Counted from the stretch's first letter, positions 1,110 through 41,598 are shown. The stretch is 41,598 nt of DNA from Deinococcus sp. (GCA_023382135.1 JAMCQK010000127.1:1-41598), one strand, 5' to 3'. The notes: generated by a model from the sequence alone, not told the origin. A program made the numbers and translations.

Positions 1110-1667
1110 CTAATTGCCTAGAATTTCCTGTTCCTTCTTGTGTAAGTGCTCGTCAACTTTGTGTGATAGCTCGTCAGTGATTTTTTGGATCTCGGCCTCG
1201 GCACGTTTGAGGTCGTCCTCGGAGATCTTCTTGTCCTTCTCCCACTTCTTGACCTTGTCCAGCGCGTCGCGGCGGGCGTTGCGGATGGCTACTTTGGCCT
1301 CTTCAGCGAAATGCTTGACCGATTTAACCAGGTCTTTGCGCCTGTCTTCGGTCAGTGGGGGAACGGGGATGAACAGTGAATCCCCCTGGTTATTGGGGTT
1401 CAAGTTAAGGTCCGATTCCCGGATGGCTTTTTCAATAAGCTTCAAAGCCTGTGGATCCCAGGCTTGTACCACTAGTGTTCGGGCGTCCGGGGACGAGACC
1501 GTGCCCAGCTGGTTCAAGGGCATCATGGAGCCGTAGTAGTCAATTTTCACATTGCTGAGGAGCGCTGGGTTGGCGCGCCCACTGCGGGTGGACGCAAGGT
1601 GGTGGTCCAGGGCCTCGAGGGCCTTCTGCATCTGCTCACGGGTTTCGCGGTAAAGTTCTTTTAGCAT
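1110..1667 (-). CDS. frr: ribosome recycling factor
   Basis: 185-aa ORF with a typical RRF sequence and length, in a conserved pyrH-frr context. Confidence 0.95.
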   Translation of the reverse strand: MLKELYRETREQMQKALEALDHHLASTRSGRANPALLSNVKIDYYGSMMPLNQLGTVSSPDARTLVVQAWDPQALKLIEKAIRESDLNLNPNNQGDSLFIPVPPLTEDRRKDLVKSVKHFAEEAKVAIRNARRDALDKVKKWEKDKKISEDDLKRAEAEIQKITDELSHKVDEHLHKKEQEILGN

Positions 1668-1725
1668 AGGGGCCTCCGCTATTTACGATAACGAAAATTT
1701 GGCCTGAGTATAGGTGGCGCTTGAC

Positions 1726-2430
1726 CTAGTTGTGGATCAGGGTGCCCACGCGTTCGCCCCGGATTAGCCGCTCCAGCTGTCCTGGCGAGTAGATATCAAA
1801 GACTACAATGGGCAGTTTGGCCTCTTGGCATAGCGTTATGGCGGTGGAATCCATCACCTGGAGACCCTTGTCCAGTACTTCCCGGTAGGTCAGTTCCGCA
1901 TACCGTGTGGCAGCTGGATTCTTGCGGGGGTCGTCGGAGTAGACGCCATCCACCTTGTTCTTCGCCATCAGCACCAGCTCAGCCCCGACCTCGAGGCCCC
2001 TGAGCGCAGCGGTGGTGTCGGTGGTGAAGAACGGGTTGCCCGTCCCCCCTCCAAAAATCACGATGCGGTCTTTTTCCAGGTGTCTAAGCGCCCGGCGGCG
2101 AATATAGGGTTCGGCCACCTGGGCGATGGTGAGGGCAGTCTGGACCCTGGTGGGGATTCCGGCTGCTTCCAAAGCGTCCTGCAAGGCCAGCGCATTCATT
2201 ACTGTTCCTAGCATTCCTATGTAGTCCGCTGTGGCACGGTCCATGCCCACACCCTGCTTGGCTCCCCGCCATAAGTTGCCCGCTCCCACCACCACGGCAA
2301 GCTGTACGCCGGTGGCGTGTGCCTTGGCGATCTCCTGCGCTAAAGTCTTGGTGGCGTCCGGCTGGATACCCAGACCGGAATCGGTGAGGAACTCGCCGGA
2401 AAGCTTGAGGAGCACGCGTTTGTATCTCAT
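1726..2430 (-). CDS. pyrH: UMP kinase
   Basis: 234-aa ORF beginning [13 protein letters not shown] and containing [10 protein letters not shown], as expected for the UMP kinase family. Confidence 0.95.
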
Positions 2431-2500
2431 GCCGAAAACCTGACACTGAAAGCCGAAGGCCGAATGTCCAAGGACGCTCGGCCTTCGGTCTTAGACATCT

Positions 2501-3091
2501 TTACGCTCCAACCTCGAAGCGGCAGAACCGCCTTACCACCACGTTCTCGCCAACTTTTGCGATCACCTGTTGTACCAGTTCCGCTATGCGGATTTTGTCA
2601 TCCTTCACGAAGGGTTGCTCCAGCAGCACTGTTTCCTCGCGGAACTTCTTGAGCCTGCCTTCGGCAATTTTCTCTGCAACGCCCTGGGGCTTGCCCTCAT
2701 TCATGGCTGCCTGGATGTAAATTTGTCTTTCCTTTTCCAGTTCCGAAGCCGGAATCTCTTCCGAACTCACGTAGCGGGGGTTCGCCATGGCGATGTGCAT
2801 CGACAGGTCCCTGCACAGGCGCTGGAACTCTTCGTTCCGTGCCACAAAGTCGGTCTCGCAGTTGACCTCTACCAGTACGGCCACGCGCCCGTTGTGGTGT
2901 AGATAGTTGCCGATAAGCCCTTCACGCGCCTCGCGGTCGGCCTTCTTGGCCGCCTTTACCGCCCCGCGTTCGCGCAACAACTGTAGTGCCTTGTCATTGT
3001 CCCAAGCCGCGTCCTCGAGCGCCTTTTTCACGTCCATCATTCCGGCGCCAGAAGACTCACGCAGCTTTTTGATCTGTTCCATCTGGGTCAT
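2501..3091 (-). CDS. tsf: elongation factor Ts (short form)
   Basis: 196-aa ORF with an N-terminal UBA-like [19 protein letters not shown] motif. Its ATGA start overlaps the rpsB stop. Confidence 0.95.
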
Positions 3092-3831
3092 GCTTCTACC
3101 TCTACCGCTACCTCTGCATCTTCGGATGGGGCTTCGCGCTTACCTCCCCCGCGGGTTTCGACAATTAGATCGGTCACACGGGTCAAGAGAAGCTGGATGG
3201 AGCGGATGGCATCGTCGTTTCCGGGGATGATGTAGTCCACCAGGTCCGGGTCGGAATCGGTGTCGGCCAGGCCCACTACGGGGATGCCCAGTTTGCGGGC
3301 TTCGGCCACAGCAATGGTTTCCTTGGTGGGGTCTACCACAAAGATGGCGTCCGGAAGGCGTTTTAGCTTGCGGAAGCCGCCCAGGTATTTTTTCAAACGT
3401 TCCATCTCGTGCTGCAAGCGGACCTGCTCGGTTTTGGGGCGCTCGTTGATGTCCGGCGAAGCGAATAAGTCTTCCAACTCTTTAAGCCGGTTCACGCGTG
3501 CGCTGATAGTTTTAAAGTTCGTGAGCATACCTCCCAGCCAGCGCTGGTTTACGTAAGGCATACCGCAGCGGTCGGCCTCGAGGGCGACGATCTCCTGCGC
3601 CTGTTTTTTGGTGCCCACATACAGCATGGTCCCGCCGCGCATGGCCAGGTCCTGCACATAGCCAAAGGTGCGTTCAATCTCGACCATGGTTTTTTGCAGG
3701 TCGATGATAAAAATACCGTTGCGCTCGGCGTAGATAAACCGCTTCATTTTTGGGTTCCAACGCTTGGTCTCGTGACCAAAATGGACCCCGGCTTCTAATA
3801 GTTCTTTGATGGTGACGTTTACCACTGACAT
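3088..3831 (-). CDS. rpsB: 30S ribosomal protein S2
   Basis: 247-aa ORF with [20 protein letters not shown]. It has an acidic C-terminal tail. Confidence 0.95.
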
Positions 3832-39959: not shown

Positions 39960-40064
39960 GTTTATAGTTCCCTGCCAGCAAAGTCAAGCAGCTGAACTAA
40001 TTGGCCTGACTGTGCCCGGCAAGGTAAAGTCTACCCCTAGCAGCCAAACAAAAGCAAGCCTGAA

Positions 40065-40094
40065 TTGACTCGACAGACGCTGAGTTGGTAGCAT
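40065..40094 (+). promoter_or_regulatory. candidate promoter of the ileS leader
   Basis: TTGACT (40065-40070), an 18-nt spacer, then TAGCAT (40089-40094) preceded by TGG (an extended -10-like element). Confidence 0.35.
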
Positions 40095-40099
40095 ATATC

Positions 40100-40438
40100 C
40101 AGTTGCTTGGCCAGGATCTTCAAGATTCGTAAACCAAGCAGCCAAGGCTAAGAAGGGGCTATCACCCTGGAGCCGTGGGAAGAAAGGAAGGTCAGAGGTC
40201 TAGCGTCCGAAGCCCGAACGTCTTTCATTCTGCTTTTGACGCCTAACCTCAGCCGCCCGAGTAGAACCTGCCGGGTCCGCCCGAAATAGCGGAAATGAGC
40301 GCCCAGGTTGCGGTAACTTTCGCTCGACGCCAAAAGTTTGGTCTTTGCGCTTGGTATTCGGCAGACCTGGGAACCGCGGTGGTACCACGGGAGCGAGCCT
40401 CTCGTCCGCGCCAAAAGTGGGTGCGGACATTTGCTTTT
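40100..40438 (+). promoter_or_regulatory. T-box riboswitch leader controlling ileS
   Basis: The T-box sequence GGTGGTACCACGG lies at 40378-40390. Antiterminator helix A1 pairs 40375-40379 with 40406-40410, and the 7-nt bulge UGGUACC is at 40380-40386. Helix A2 pairs 40387-40393 with 40399-40405. This structure is mutually exclusive with the downstream terminator. The 5' boundary is uncertain. Confidence 0.8.
40404..40438 (+). terminator. T-box attenuator terminator
   Basis: GTCCGCGCC (40404-40412) pairs with GGGTGCGGAC (40419-40428), giving a 9-bp stem with one G-U pair. It is followed by ATTTGCTTTT. The AAGGAGG Shine-Dalgarno sequence and ATG 40450 come next. Confidence 0.8.
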
Positions 40439-40449
40439 AAGGAGGCGGC

Positions 40450-41598
40450 ATGTTCAAAGAGGTTGGCCAAGACAAATTTCCCAAGTTAGAGGAAGAAATC
40501 CTGGCGTTCTGGAAAGACAAGCAGATTTTTGAGCAGTCTTCCCTGCGCGAGGGACCCGAGTTTGTGTTCTACGAGGGGCCACCCACAGCCAACGGACAAC
40601 CCGCCATGCATCACGTTCTGGCGCGGGCGTTTAAAGATTTGTTCCCCCGTTACAAGAGCATGCGCGGGTTTCACATCACTAGAAAGGGTGGCTGGGATAC
40701 CCACGGGCTGCCAGTTGAGATTAGCGTGGAAAAAAAGCTGGGGCTATTGGGACGCTCGCACGATAAATCAAGGGCGGAACTGGAGGAGTTTAACCGGCTT
40801 TGCCGCGATTCGGTATTCGAGAACATACAAGACTGGAAGTTTTTTACCGAGCGGATGGGGTACTGGGTAAACCTCGAGGATGCCTACGTTACCTACCACA
40901 ACGAGTACATAGAGTCGGTATGGAACCTTTTAAAAAGACTTTGGGACAAAGGCCTGATCACGCAGGACTACAAAGTGGTGCCGCTCTCACCCAGGATCTC
41001 GACCACGCTCTCAGCAAACGAAATTGCCGATGGCTACAAAGAGGTGGACGACCCCAGCGTTTACGTGCGCTTCCCGCTGAAGCTAGAATCCACGCCGGAT
41101 GCTGTGAGATTGGAACTCGAAAAGCAGGGCGTCAAAATTGAGTCCCTGGCAAACCTTGCGCTGCTGGTCTGGACCACTACTCCTTGGACCCTGCCCTCGA
41201 ACACTATGGCCGCTGTCAATCCAGCGCTGGAGTATGTGGTCGCCAACTCACCGATGGGTCCGCTTGTGGTTGCCGCTGAAGCAATGGAAAGAGTGGCATC
41301 GCTACATCCCGAAAGTCCCGCCCTGGAAGTGCGAGCTAAACTCAAAGGCTCGCTATTGGAGTACTGGGAGTACCAGCCTCCCTTTCCGGAAGTGGCGCCC
41401 GAGCTGGGGGTCCGGGGCAAGATGCACTTTGTTGCACTGGCGGACTTTGTAAGCACCGAAGACGGTTCCGGCATCGCCCACGAAGCGCCGGTTTACGGCG
41501 CGGAAGACCTGGTGCTCTCGCGGCAGTACGGTGTTCCGCTGATTTTCGGGACCGACGATCACGGCATCATGCAGGCGACAACCGAAAAGGGAAAATTC
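40450..41598 (+). CDS. ileS: isoleucyl-tRNA synthetase, 5' partial (runs off the window)
   Basis: I translated 383 codons by hand and found no stop. The sequence contains PPTANGQPAMHHVLAR (HIGH region), GWDTHGLP and WTTTPWTLPSN. It is absent from the ORF track because no stop lies inside the window. Confidence 0.92.
   Translation, partial: MFKEVGQDKFPKLEEEILAFWKDKQIFEQSSLREGPEFVFYEGPPTANGQPAMHHVLARAFKDLFPRYKSMRGFHITRKGGWDTHGLPVEISVEKKLGLLGRSHDKSRAELEEFNRLCRDSVFENIQDWKFFTERMGYWVNLEDAYVTYHNEYIESVWNLLKRLWDKGLITQDYKVVPLSPRISTTLSANEIADGYKEVDDPSVYVRFPLKLESTPDAVRLELEKQGVKIESLANLALLVWTTTPWTLPSNTMAAVNPALEYVVANSPMGPLVVAAEAMERVASLHPESPALEVRAKLKGSLLEYWEYQPPFPEVAPELGVRGKMHFVALADFVSTEDGSGIAHEAPVYGAEDLVLSRQYGVPLIFGTDDHGIMQATTEKGKF

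Follow-up and report, generated by a model that had tools for sequence, protein, structure and literature searches.

The window analysed here is the whole stretch of 41,598 bases (57.5% G+C) from Deinococcus sp. (GCA_023382135.1, JAMCQK010000127.1). The gene set consists of 38 genes predicted by a self-trained model over 91% of the window and one 61-codon gene called in another assembly. The content is housekeeping: smc, trpBA, hisS, aspS, asnS, rho, pgk, gap, tpiA, the rib operon, rpsB-tsf-pyrH-frr and pdxST. AspRS shows 73% identity to that of Thermus and 68% to that of Meiothermus, and AsnRS shows 82% to that of a Meiothermus metagenome-assembled genome (MAG); judged by these proteins, the window is chromosomal DNA of a member of the Thermaceae (Deinococcota). 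Scattered within the genes is the palindrome CTCGAG, often as part of the longer palindromes CCTCGAGG (8-mer), GCCTCGAGGC (10-mer) and GGCCTCGAGGCC (12-mer).

Iterated palindrome of the window

CTCGAG occurs 52 times, where 12.8 copies are expected from base composition (order 0) and 10.5 from an order-2 Markov model. There are 30 copies of CCTCGAGG (expected 1.06 and 0.88, the order-2 ratio being 34-fold), 12 of GCCTCGAGGC (about 0.1 by base composition or Markov models up to order 2) and 6 of GGCCTCGAGGCC (0.007-0.01), the latter starting at 9510, 10628, 16408, 17121, 20098 and 34574. CTCGAG ranks first among the 6-mers, and CCTCGAGG with its overlapping shifts fills the top five places among the 8-mers. 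The density of CCTCGAGG is 0.72 per kb (30 in 41.6 kb). An earlier first-pass annotation had reported about 52, about 30 and 6 copies of the hexamer, 8-mer and 12-mer; all these numbers and their positions were reproduced by the recount, and the excess over base expectation that it claimed is borne out by the expectations of order 0 to 2.

The copies are found in 23 of the 39 genes, with no heterogeneity among genes (p = 0.83). Neither clustering by gene nor regular spacing was observed in the 41.6-kb window, the spacing being random-like with a coefficient of variation of about 1.0. In 46 of 52 cases the palindrome is read as CTC-GAG (Leu-Glu), in six as xxC-TCG-AGx, and never in the third phase. 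This agrees with the earlier impression that the copies are mostly Leu-Glu, and the four Ala-Ser-Arg sites singled out then (6352, 17121, 24597, 29365) are all among the six.

The counts were compared with null models that preserve the proteins. In the first, synonymous codons were permuted within each gene, all proteins and the per-gene codon usage being kept (2000 shuffles). The means were 19.8±4.0 for CTCGAG, 3.5±1.8 for CCTCGAGG, 0.76 for the 10-mer and 0.20 for the 12-mer, and no shuffle reached the observed counts. Expectations were lower still when codons were pooled across genes or their order was shuffled. A stricter null, a Markov chain that additionally holds every codon-junction dinucleotide, gave 15.5±3.4 CTCGAG and 2.5±1.6 CCTCGAGG. 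The excess over the codon-based nulls is thus approximately 9-12-fold for CCTCGAGG and 2.6-fold for CTCGAG. The nulls err on the cautious side, since the motif itself contributes 46 of the 300 CTC codons. When all 64 palindromic hexamers were compared with the codon null, CTCGAG was the sole strong positive outlier (z = 8.2).

The window encodes 160 Leu-Glu dipeptides, and 46 of them are spelled CTC-GAG, compared with 17 expected. The 8-mer occupies 27 of the 64 x-Leu-Glu-[AGVDE] slots where synonymous spelling permits it. The off-phase copies are enriched as well: 6 vs 1.44 for CTCGAG, 3 vs 0.17 for CCTCGAGG (18-fold, a count reached in none of 1000 shuffles) and 2 vs 0.04 for the 10-mer. Therefore, this is not a CTC-GAG codon-pair effect. 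The excess belongs to the DNA level, and neither proteins nor codon usage nor codon junctions account for it. The first-pass annotation had argued that protein-level selection alone is not an obvious explanation, and had proposed that a shuffle preserving codon usage and dipeptides and reproducing the counts would dispose of the pattern. The counts far exceed all shuffles, and its argument is upheld by the synonymous and junction-preserving nulls, by the off-phase excess, and by flanks that are specific to CTCGAG and differ between lineages (see below).

Symmetry in the flanks of the 52 sites extends to position ±3 (G 39, R 39, C 36 on one side; G 38, Y 35, C 38 on the other, with R for purine and Y for pyrimidine). 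The extended consensus is GRC-CTCGAG-GYC, and beyond ±3 no position has one base above 52%. C..G flanks surround 58% of the CTCGAG copies in the window, as compared with 5-16% of control hexamers.

The individual sites are given here in the coordinates of the whole window, with the strand set to '.' throughout; sites with CTCGAG only are called bare. In the Leu-Glu phase, CCTCGAGG is found at 1613..1620 (A-L-E-A, RRF gene 1110-1667(-)), 1989..1996 (G-L-E-V, gene 1726-2430(-)) and 3576..3583 (ribosomal protein S2 gene), and bare sites at 3014..3019 (EF-Ts gene), 6624..6629 (peptidase M29 gene) and 7055..7060 (trpB). The peptidase M29 gene has one more bare site off-phase at 6352..6357 (A-S-R). 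The 12-mer of trpA is at 9510..9521 (G-L-E-A). The next 12-mer, in the solitary beta-class DNA methyltransferase gene 9854-10699(+), is the centre of a perfect 14-bp palindrome, AGGCCTCGAGGCCT, at 10627..10640 (G-L-E-A). The aminotransferase gene contains a 10-mer at 11146..11155 (R-L-E-A) and CCTCGAGG at 11393..11400 (D-L-E-A). Bare sites are present in tpiA (12410..12415, Leu-Glu phase) and gap (14309..14314, off-phase, H-S-S), and a 10-mer in smpB (15399..15408, S-L-E-A). The amidase-like gene 15775-17151(+) carries two 12-mers, at 16408..16419 (G-L-E-A) and, off-phase at its end, at 17121..17132 (P-A-S-R-P).

All sites of smc are in the Leu-Glu phase. They comprise bare sites at 17800..17805, 18280..18285, 18787..18792 and 20197..20202; CCTCGAGG at 18543..18550, 18912..18919 and 19473..19480 (all D-L-E-A) and 20427..20434 (A-L-E-A); a 10-mer at 19088..19097 (R-L-E-A); a 12-mer at 20098..20109 (G-L-E-A); GACCTCGAGGTC, a 12-bp palindrome of the GRC...GYC variant, at 20062..20073 (D-L-E-V); and GCTCGAGC, the dominant flank variant of Trueperaceae, at 18426..18433.

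Further downstream, there is a 10-mer in ribH (24379..24388, G-L-E-A), and CCTCGAGG in an integrase-family gene at 24596..24603 (off-phase, K-A-S-R-D) and 24811..24818 (D-L-E-A). In hisS, CCTCGAGG occurs at 26625..26632 (G-L-E-V) and 27258..27265 (G-L-E-D, orthologues GVEE, GLRD, GLKE). A bare site of aspS at 27559..27564 lies in the conserved V-L-E-G-W, and Thermus has CCTCGAGG at this position; the other aspS sites are a 10-mer at 28511..28520 (R-L-E-A) and bare sites at 28603..28608 (F-L-E-P) and 28789..28794 (L-L-E-F). The PhzF-family gene has an off-phase 10-mer at 29363..29372 (T-A-S-R-L). This 10-mer is followed by bare sites at 29573..29578 (Leu-Glu phase), 30134..30139 (Leu-Glu phase, the final codons of gene 29246-30145(+)) and 30311..30316 (R-L-E-A), and by CCTCGAGG at 30502..30509 (D-L-E-A, orthologues LLQA, ELRA) and 31599..31606 (D-L-E-A). 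The asnS gene contains bare sites at 34466..34471 (V-L-E-R) and 34910..34915 (conserved G-L-E-R-T) and the polymorphic 12-mer at 34574..34585 (G-L-E-A), which is GGCCTTGAGGCC in three other assemblies. A bare site of pdxT at 35143..35148 is off-phase (A-S-S). In pdxS, CCTCGAGG at 36349..36356 (V-L-E-A) is the single one of the aligned 8-mer sites listed that Thermus orthologues share as CCTCGAGG, and CGCTCGAGCG, a 10-bp palindrome with the GC flank variant, lies at 36492..36501 (A-L-E-R). The remaining sites are CCTCGAGG at 37868..37875 (V-L-E-A, LysM/M23 peptidase gene), a bare site at 38848..38853 (I-L-E-T, rho) and CCTCGAGG at 40872..40879 (N-L-E-D, ileS).

The integrase-family gene just mentioned (24473-25516 (-), between the rib operon and hisS, with its two CCTCGAGG copies) encodes a tyrosine recombinase. 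It has counterparts with 59-63% identity in other Thermaceae loci. Such retention suggests a probable xerC/xerD-like gene, not the remnant of a prophage. Another feature of the window is an exact in-frame tandem duplication of 861 bp in trpB, where 7297-8157 is repeated at 8158-9018 inside the open reading frame 6908-9085 (725 codons). The duplicated region (7297-9018) has no CTCGAG sites. The duplication is missing from four other assemblies of the species, whose trpB has 438 codons; it is either peculiar to this strain or an artefact of assembly.

Flanking DNA, related genomes and site turnover

Further assemblies of this species, with 99.1-99.9% identity (98.3% in one case), reach 7.7 kb and 8.9 kb past the window ends. 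These 16.6 kb contain 15 CTCGAG, 9 CCTCGAGG (0.45 expected) and 3 12-mers. Confinement to the window, named in the first-pass annotation as an outcome that would refute the pattern, was checked in these flanks and in relatives: the enrichment continues, and a window-only effect is ruled out by both.

The comparison set consisted of loci around aspS from 80 genomes and four reference replicons. Thermus was represented by four species and plasmid pTT27 of T. thermophilus HB8 (L001, L002, L003, L043, L087; 137 kb). The Thermus loci are purged of TCGA 3-5-fold, and 88% of the remaining CTCGAG copies are within CCTCGAGG, while 20-45% of control hexamers have the same C..G flanks. The 137 kb contain 131 CTCGAG and not a single GTCGAG or CTCGAC. 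In pTT27 the observed and codon-null counts are 40 vs 198 for TCGA, 36 vs 79 for CTCGAG and 32 vs 28.6 for CCTCGAGG. In two Thermus species with 64% G+C, CCTCGAGG is clearly in excess (16 vs 3.2 and 18 vs 3.8).

In Meiothermus-like loci and an Allomeiothermus plasmid TCGA is not purged and CTCGAG is enriched 2-4-fold with no dominant 8-mer. The absence of a flank preference in the Meiothermus-like loci agrees with the methylome of M. ruber, whose motif has 6 bp. In Trueperaceae and a Deinococcota MAG TCGA is not purged either, CTCGAG is enriched, and the iterated word is GCTCGAGC; G..C flanks surround 39% of the CTCGAG copies of Trueperaceae and 0-15% of control hexamers. The most extreme locus of the set comes from a Trueperaceae MAG (L009, JAHEBB010000010.1), where 21.8 kb at 44% G+C contain 30 copies of GCTCGAGC, mostly in the Leu-Glu phase, compared with 0.8 under the codon null (37-fold) and approximately 150 times the base expectation. 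D. radiodurans MP1 shows no enrichment (6 vs 15.2). Nor is there any in the loci scanned outside Deinococcota, except for a mild excess of GCTCGAGC in two betaproteobacterial loci (8 vs 1.8; 6 vs 2.5).

Thus the comparison with related genomes proposed earlier shows the CTCGAG core enriched or spared across Thermales and Trueperaceae, and the enrichment has symmetric flanks that are specific to each lineage. Since these flanks are specific to the hexamer and change by lineage, they point to a dimeric DNA-recognising protein and not to translation.

The first 50 kb of Thermus phage P23-45 (L089) contain no CCTCGAGG (4.3 expected) and 22 TCGA vs 178, an 8-fold avoidance. The same 50 kb contain CCTGCAGG 6 times, 17-fold over expectation, and the phage encodes the C5-cytosine methylase P23p14. 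Several other iterated words were seen in the comparison set. A 15-kb locus of Paenisporosarcina sp. TG20 (L038) contains 19 copies of the palindrome GTTGCAAC, roughly 105 times the base expectation; it is possibly an unrelated iterated palindrome of a Firmicute. A Bacteroidota MAG (L061) contains TGACCTTC/GAAGGTCA 18 times. In Thermus arciformis (L003), CCTTAAGG occurs 7 times, about 41 times the base expectation, and this may simply be C-CTT-AAG-G (Leu-Lys) codon use.

The turnover of sites was analysed in codon-level alignments of syntenic hisS, aspS, phzF, two hydrolase genes, asnS, pdxT and pdxS. The core of the window's 8-mer sites is common to 2 of 27 comparisons with Thermus orthologues and to 7 of 12 with two Meiothermus loci. 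Leu-Glu itself is kept in 6 of the 27 Thermus comparisons, vs a background amino-acid identity of 68%. The residues at the sites are GLEVK as compared with QLTLK, GLSVK or GVHVK in orthologues, GLEAL with EVPPL, and TASRL with LARRL. The hisS site at 26625..26632 was created by an amino-acid change, as its orthologues read QLTL, GLSV or GVHV. In Thermus, conserved Leu-Glu positions are spelled CTG-GAG or TTG-GAA unless the flanks permit CCTCGAGG. Sites are thus gained and lost all the time, often via amino-acid change at weakly constrained positions. Such turnover argues for an active pressure in the window's lineage and not for a relic.

Two polymorphisms among strains involve the sites. At 34577, GGCCTCGAGGCC alternates with GGCCTTGAGGCC, a synonymous C/T difference at the CpG of the 12-mer, and at 30770, ATC-GAG alternates with CTC-GAG, an Ile/Leu change. 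The few substitutions available within the core (0.1-1.7% divergence) amount to 0 in 108 bases vs 1.8 expected in one assembly (L082) and 1 vs 0.2-0.45 in three others.

Methyltransferases, restriction and the origin of the iteration

Enzymes with the motif cTcgAg are present in three of the four Thermaceae sequenced by Blow et al. 2016 (PMC4752239, supplement). These are M.Mru1279II of Meiothermus ruber (Mrub_2385, 99.5% of sites modified), M.Mch9957IV of M. chliarophilus (MeichDRAFT_0814, 94.1%) and M.Mhy14884I of Marinithermus (Marky_0034, 94.6%). All three are scored there as active type II enzymes producing N6-methyladenine (m6A), and a partner endonuclease is listed for none of them. By annotation, these published CTCGAG enzymes are Eco57I or type-I-like members of the gamma class. 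A search of the main text by term showed no discussion of the Thermaceae entries or of over-representation of the target. In D. radiodurans, the only methylation is N4-methylcytosine at CCGCGG (PMC6712171). As three Thermaceae methylomes show it, the palindrome core is the target of an orphan methyltransferase conserved in the family.

The adenine of CTCG(m6A)G is also the adenine of the embedded TCGA, and methylation there protects against TaqI-type enzymes, as by M.TaqI. TaqI-type methyltransferases were found in at least 10 Thermus species. In the window, TCGA is at the codon-null level overall and 30% below it outside CTCGAG (103 vs 146, z = -5); this deficit vanishes under the junction-preserving null. 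Six palindromic hexamers are depleted relative to the protein-preserving null: CGGCCG (9 vs 24), GCCGGC (18 vs 34), GTCGAC (2 vs 11), CGATCG (0 vs 7), GGATCC (2 vs 9) and GGGCCC (7 vs 15.5), with z from -2.6 to -3.6. TTAA (47 vs 81) and GATC (115 vs 159), targets of other Thermaceae orphan methyltransferases, are also below the codon null. These depleted palindromes probably record past restriction pressure.

We suggest that CCTCGAGG is a highly iterated palindrome (HIP) of the Thermaceae genome, comparable to those of cyanobacteria and tied to the orphan CTCG(m6A)G methyltransferase family or to a reader of its mark, and we give this reading a probability of roughly 0.5. A sequence-specific pressure at the DNA level, exerted via a symmetric (dimeric) DNA-recognising protein, would have multiplied the word across coding DNA. 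The candidate recogniser is the Thermaceae methyltransferase family or the mark reader, with a specificity that would effectively be 8 bp in the window's lineage and in Thermus, and the window organism is predicted to encode an orphan CTCGAG methyltransferase. Methylation of the TCGA adenine may protect the sites from the TaqI-type restriction that is endemic in the family, and this protection would explain the sparing of CCTCGAGG in Thermus. A dense methylated self-mark may moreover be under positive selection, for instance during exchange of DNA, as proposed for HIP1, and such selection would explain multiplication beyond sparing. The Leu-Glu frame might be favoured as the cheapest translation of the word. 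It is also possible, more tentatively, that Thermales and Trueperaceae have an independent HIP system on CTCGAG, whose flanks (CC..GG, GC..GC, none) would switch with the resident orphan m6A methyltransferase or reader, the dense methylated self-mark shielding TCGA from the endemic TaqI-type restriction and favouring uptake or recombination of kin DNA in bacteria that are highly competent.

Several observations weigh against the link to the CTCGAG methyltransferases. None of the results explains multiplication of methylated sites, rather than their tolerance. The published methylome of Allomeiothermus silvanus (PMC4752239) has no CTCGAG methylation, and its plasmid is nevertheless approximately 1.9-fold enriched in CTCGAG. 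The depletion of TTAA and GATC means that orphan methylation alone does not cause iteration, and a general enrichment of orphan methyltransferase targets is therefore ruled out. Recognition in the published enzymes covers 6 bp, as compared with 8-12 bp of the iterated word. No CTCGAG copy is found in the 3.4 kb of intergenic DNA of the window, where 4.6 would be expected at the coding density. Finally, no gamma-class methyltransferase of the CTCGAG type was found in the 58 kb examined. The only methyltransferase there is the solitary beta-class one at 9854-10699(+) (PF01555, E = 3.6e-50), directly after trpA and with no endonuclease nearby.

The closest solved relative of this beta-class enzyme is M.RsrI, and homologues with about 70% identity exist in Calidithermus, Meiothermus and Fimbriimonadales. 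It probably corresponds to another Thermaceae orphan, with a predicted specificity of TTAA or AATT type. It is probably not the enzyme behind the palindrome, being PF01555/M.RsrI-like, whereas the published CTCGAG enzymes are of the gamma class. A tblastn search of plasmids with an M.TaqI query (98% identical to a database protein) gave no Thermaceae match, and a protein search for a gamma-class CTCGAG methyltransferase yielded only TaqI-type enzymes among the matches listed.

Among the other explanations, a by-product of protein and codon habits, that is, of common Leu-Glu(-Ala), favoured CTC, GAG, GGC and GCC codons and a CTC-GAG codon-pair preference, has hardly any probability left. The predominance of in-frame CTC-GAG would fit it, as would the 1.4-fold excess of Leu-Glu over composition (160 vs 113) and the very G+C-rich T. 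thermophilus, where the codon null predicts 28.6 CCTCGAGG in 50 kb against 32 found. However, nulls that keep proteins, codon usage and even junctions yield 2.5-3.5 copies of the 8-mer where the window has 30, the off-phase copies are enriched 18-fold, and orthologues often hold other amino acids at the sites. Moreover, a translational codon-pair effect would not produce flanks specific to CTCGAG and differing by lineage (C..G, G..C, none). A codon or dipeptide artefact is ruled out for this organism by the three nulls and the off-phase enrichment. It is improbable too that the sites were only spared, TaqI-type pressure purging TCGA save where a second methyltransferase protects it, so that the excess was left over from a Thermus-like ancestor with a higher G+C content and was not actively multiplied. 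TaqI-type enzymes are indeed common across Thermus, CCTCGAGG of pTT27 is at the codon-null level while other TCGA are purged about 5-fold, and TCGA outside CTCGAG is reduced by 30% in the window. On the other hand, the latter deficit is gone once junctions are preserved, the window 8-mer exceeds nulls based on the organism's own codon usage about 9-12-fold, and the core common to 2 of 27 Thermus comparisons, with most sites at non-conserved residues, indicates that the sites are new, not inherited. Sparing cannot give a 9-12-fold excess in the window, nor the 37-fold excess (30 vs 0.8 GCTCGAGC) in the Trueperaceae locus with 44% G+C; therefore, a positive force is needed.

We infer this multiplying force, and a mutational drive is a possible alternative, if an unlikely one. 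A bias of mismatch correction or gene conversion would turn near-matches into the palindrome regardless of function, like Vsr/Dcm. By expectations calculated from window codon frequencies, the transition neighbours are halved (CTT-GAG 8 vs 17.0, CTC-GAA 7 vs 15.4) and the transversion neighbour is not (CTG-GAG 25 vs 28.5); CCTTGAGG/CCTCAAGG are represented by 1 copy vs 4.3. Strains differ by C/T at the CpG of one 12-mer, and weakly constrained residues host new sites. However, the one-off neighbours as a class are undepleted (36 vs 40.8), the intergenic DNA, being the least constrained, has no copies, and the documented core modification in relatives is only m6A, which leaves no deamination mismatch. 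In addition, no Vsr-like gene was seen in the 58 kb examined, and the lytic Thermus phage has no copies, though it uses its own polymerase. A very-short-patch signature was rejected: one-off neighbours are not clearly depleted in 41 kb, and the halved CTT-GAG and CTC-GAA fit selection and biased repair alike. It seems equally doubtful that the word is a methylation-independent binding site of a DNA-uptake, recombination, nucleoid or segregation protein, overlapping the methyltransferase motif incidentally. The density and the frame-biased coding placement are like those of uptake sequences, flank specificity past the 6-bp methyltransferase motif suggests a second reader, A. silvanus is enriched with no detectable methylation, and Thermales are naturally competent. 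Against this, DNA uptake by Thermus reportedly does not depend on sequence, to our knowledge no known DNA uptake sequence is a palindrome, the copies are neither clustered nor regularly spaced, and there is no identified candidate protein.

Comparison with known systems

HIP1 is the cyanobacterial palindrome GCGATCGC, with densities from 0.3 to 2.7 per kb (Elhai 2015, PMC4390886; Xu et al. 2018, PMC5861425). The HIP class is defined by at least a 16-fold excess over the second-order Markov expectation, with the palindrome as the top 8-mer and its overlapping shifts next (PMC4390886; PMC5861425), and cyanobacterial HIPs by association with a methyltransferase acting on the internal sequence (Elhai 2015, PMC4390886). 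Further marks of the class are a periodic distribution at 10-90 kb and conservation of sites above background between related genomes. HIP1-dependent transformation has been described (bioRxiv 10.1101/2024.09.10.611283; 10.64898/2026.06.24.733823). The palindrome of the window is likewise a G+C-rich octamer heading the 8-mer list before its shifts, at 0.7 per kb and about 30-fold over the Markov expectation. As with HIP1, it is intragenic, changes synonymous and some non-synonymous positions, has word variants in sister lineages, and contains a hexamer targeted by an orphan methyltransferase in relatives of the organism. On the other hand, its core is unrelated and the phylum is different, with neither GCGATCGC nor CGATCG present in the window. 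Only m6A is known at CTCGAG, with no 5-methylcytosine (m5C) partner comparable to DmtC, and the Thermus palindrome coexists with a purge of the embedded TCGA. The HIP class occurs in all frames and in non-coding DNA, whereas about 90% of the window copies are in one frame and none is intergenic; the phases are 46/0/6, with both occupied phases enriched. Thus the likeness to HIP1 proposed in the first-pass annotation holds for density, the order-2 ratio of 34, the top 8-mer and an orphan methyltransferase on CTCGAG in three Thermaceae, and breaks down at the frame-locked placement outside intergenic DNA. The link to repair, which was a part of that analogy, fares worse, as the neighbours carry no clear very-short-patch signature and m6A creates no T:G mismatches.

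The Thermaceae orphan m6A enzymes recognise the exact core of the palindrome, belong to the same family, are active and have no endonuclease listed in PMC4752239, but they are methylome entries only, with a 6-bp specificity compared with the iterated word of 8-12 bp. In avoidance of restriction by TaqI/TthHB8I at TCGA, the likeness is that Thermus hosts and phage P23-45 are strongly depleted in TCGA and the window avoids several other palindromes; the sign is opposite, as a TCGA-containing word is spared in Thermus or multiplied in the window organism. The Dcm/Vsr very-short-patch bias, which favours CCWGG over CTWGG in E. coli and was reportedly described by Bhagwat and McClelland in 1992, is also a methyltransferase-associated increase of the enzyme's own target, and the CTC-GAG transition neighbours are depleted in the window. 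However, the Dcm/Vsr effect is modest in size and driven by deamination of m5C, while the excess in the window is 10-30-fold and the known modification is m6A.

In transformation of C. jejuni, self-recognition depends on methylation of RAATTY by CtsM. Such systems and the uptake signal sequences and DNA uptake sequences of competent bacteria resemble the word in having about one copy per kb, in the cheapest frames, or a methylated self mark. The classical uptake sequences are, however, non-palindromic 9-12-mers, and the word of the window is a perfect palindrome. The restriction enzymes AbsI (CC^TCGAGG) and PspXI (VC^TCGAGB) demonstrate that proteins of such 8-bp specificity exist, but their source bacteria are unrelated and nothing ties them to the window genome. 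Repetitive extragenic palindromic (REP) sequences and miniature inverted-repeat transposable elements (MITE) differ in being extragenic units of 20-40 bp or more, whereas all 52 window copies are intragenic. Chi, FtsK-orienting polar sequences (KOPS) and architecture-imparting sequences (AIMS) are strand-skewed octamers, whereas the palindrome is identical on both strands.

The CTCGAG iteration of Thermaceae and Trueperaceae appears undescribed: the searchable literature, in which subscription journals are largely outside coverage, contains no account of a CTCGAG-type iterated palindrome in Thermus or Deinococcota. The HIP1 puzzle is about thirty years old, and abundance of this type has been stated not to occur outside cyanobacteria (Xu et al. 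2018, PMC5861425). Another iterated palindrome, unrelated to HIP1, would demonstrate convergent evolution around orphan methyltransferases. The present instance combines a different phylum, a documented orphan methyltransferase on the core, and switching of flanks between sister lineages. In practical terms, the statistics of XhoI, TaqI and AbsI sites are far from random in Thermaceae, and the word provides a strong compositional marker by which Thermaceae and Trueperaceae DNA can be binned and host DNA told from phage DNA. It occurs in Thermus thermophilus, which is highly transformable and genetically tractable, so that direct experiments are feasible. If Thermales and Trueperaceae do have an independent HIP system, HIPs would represent a general strategy reached by convergence, and not a cyanobacterial oddity.

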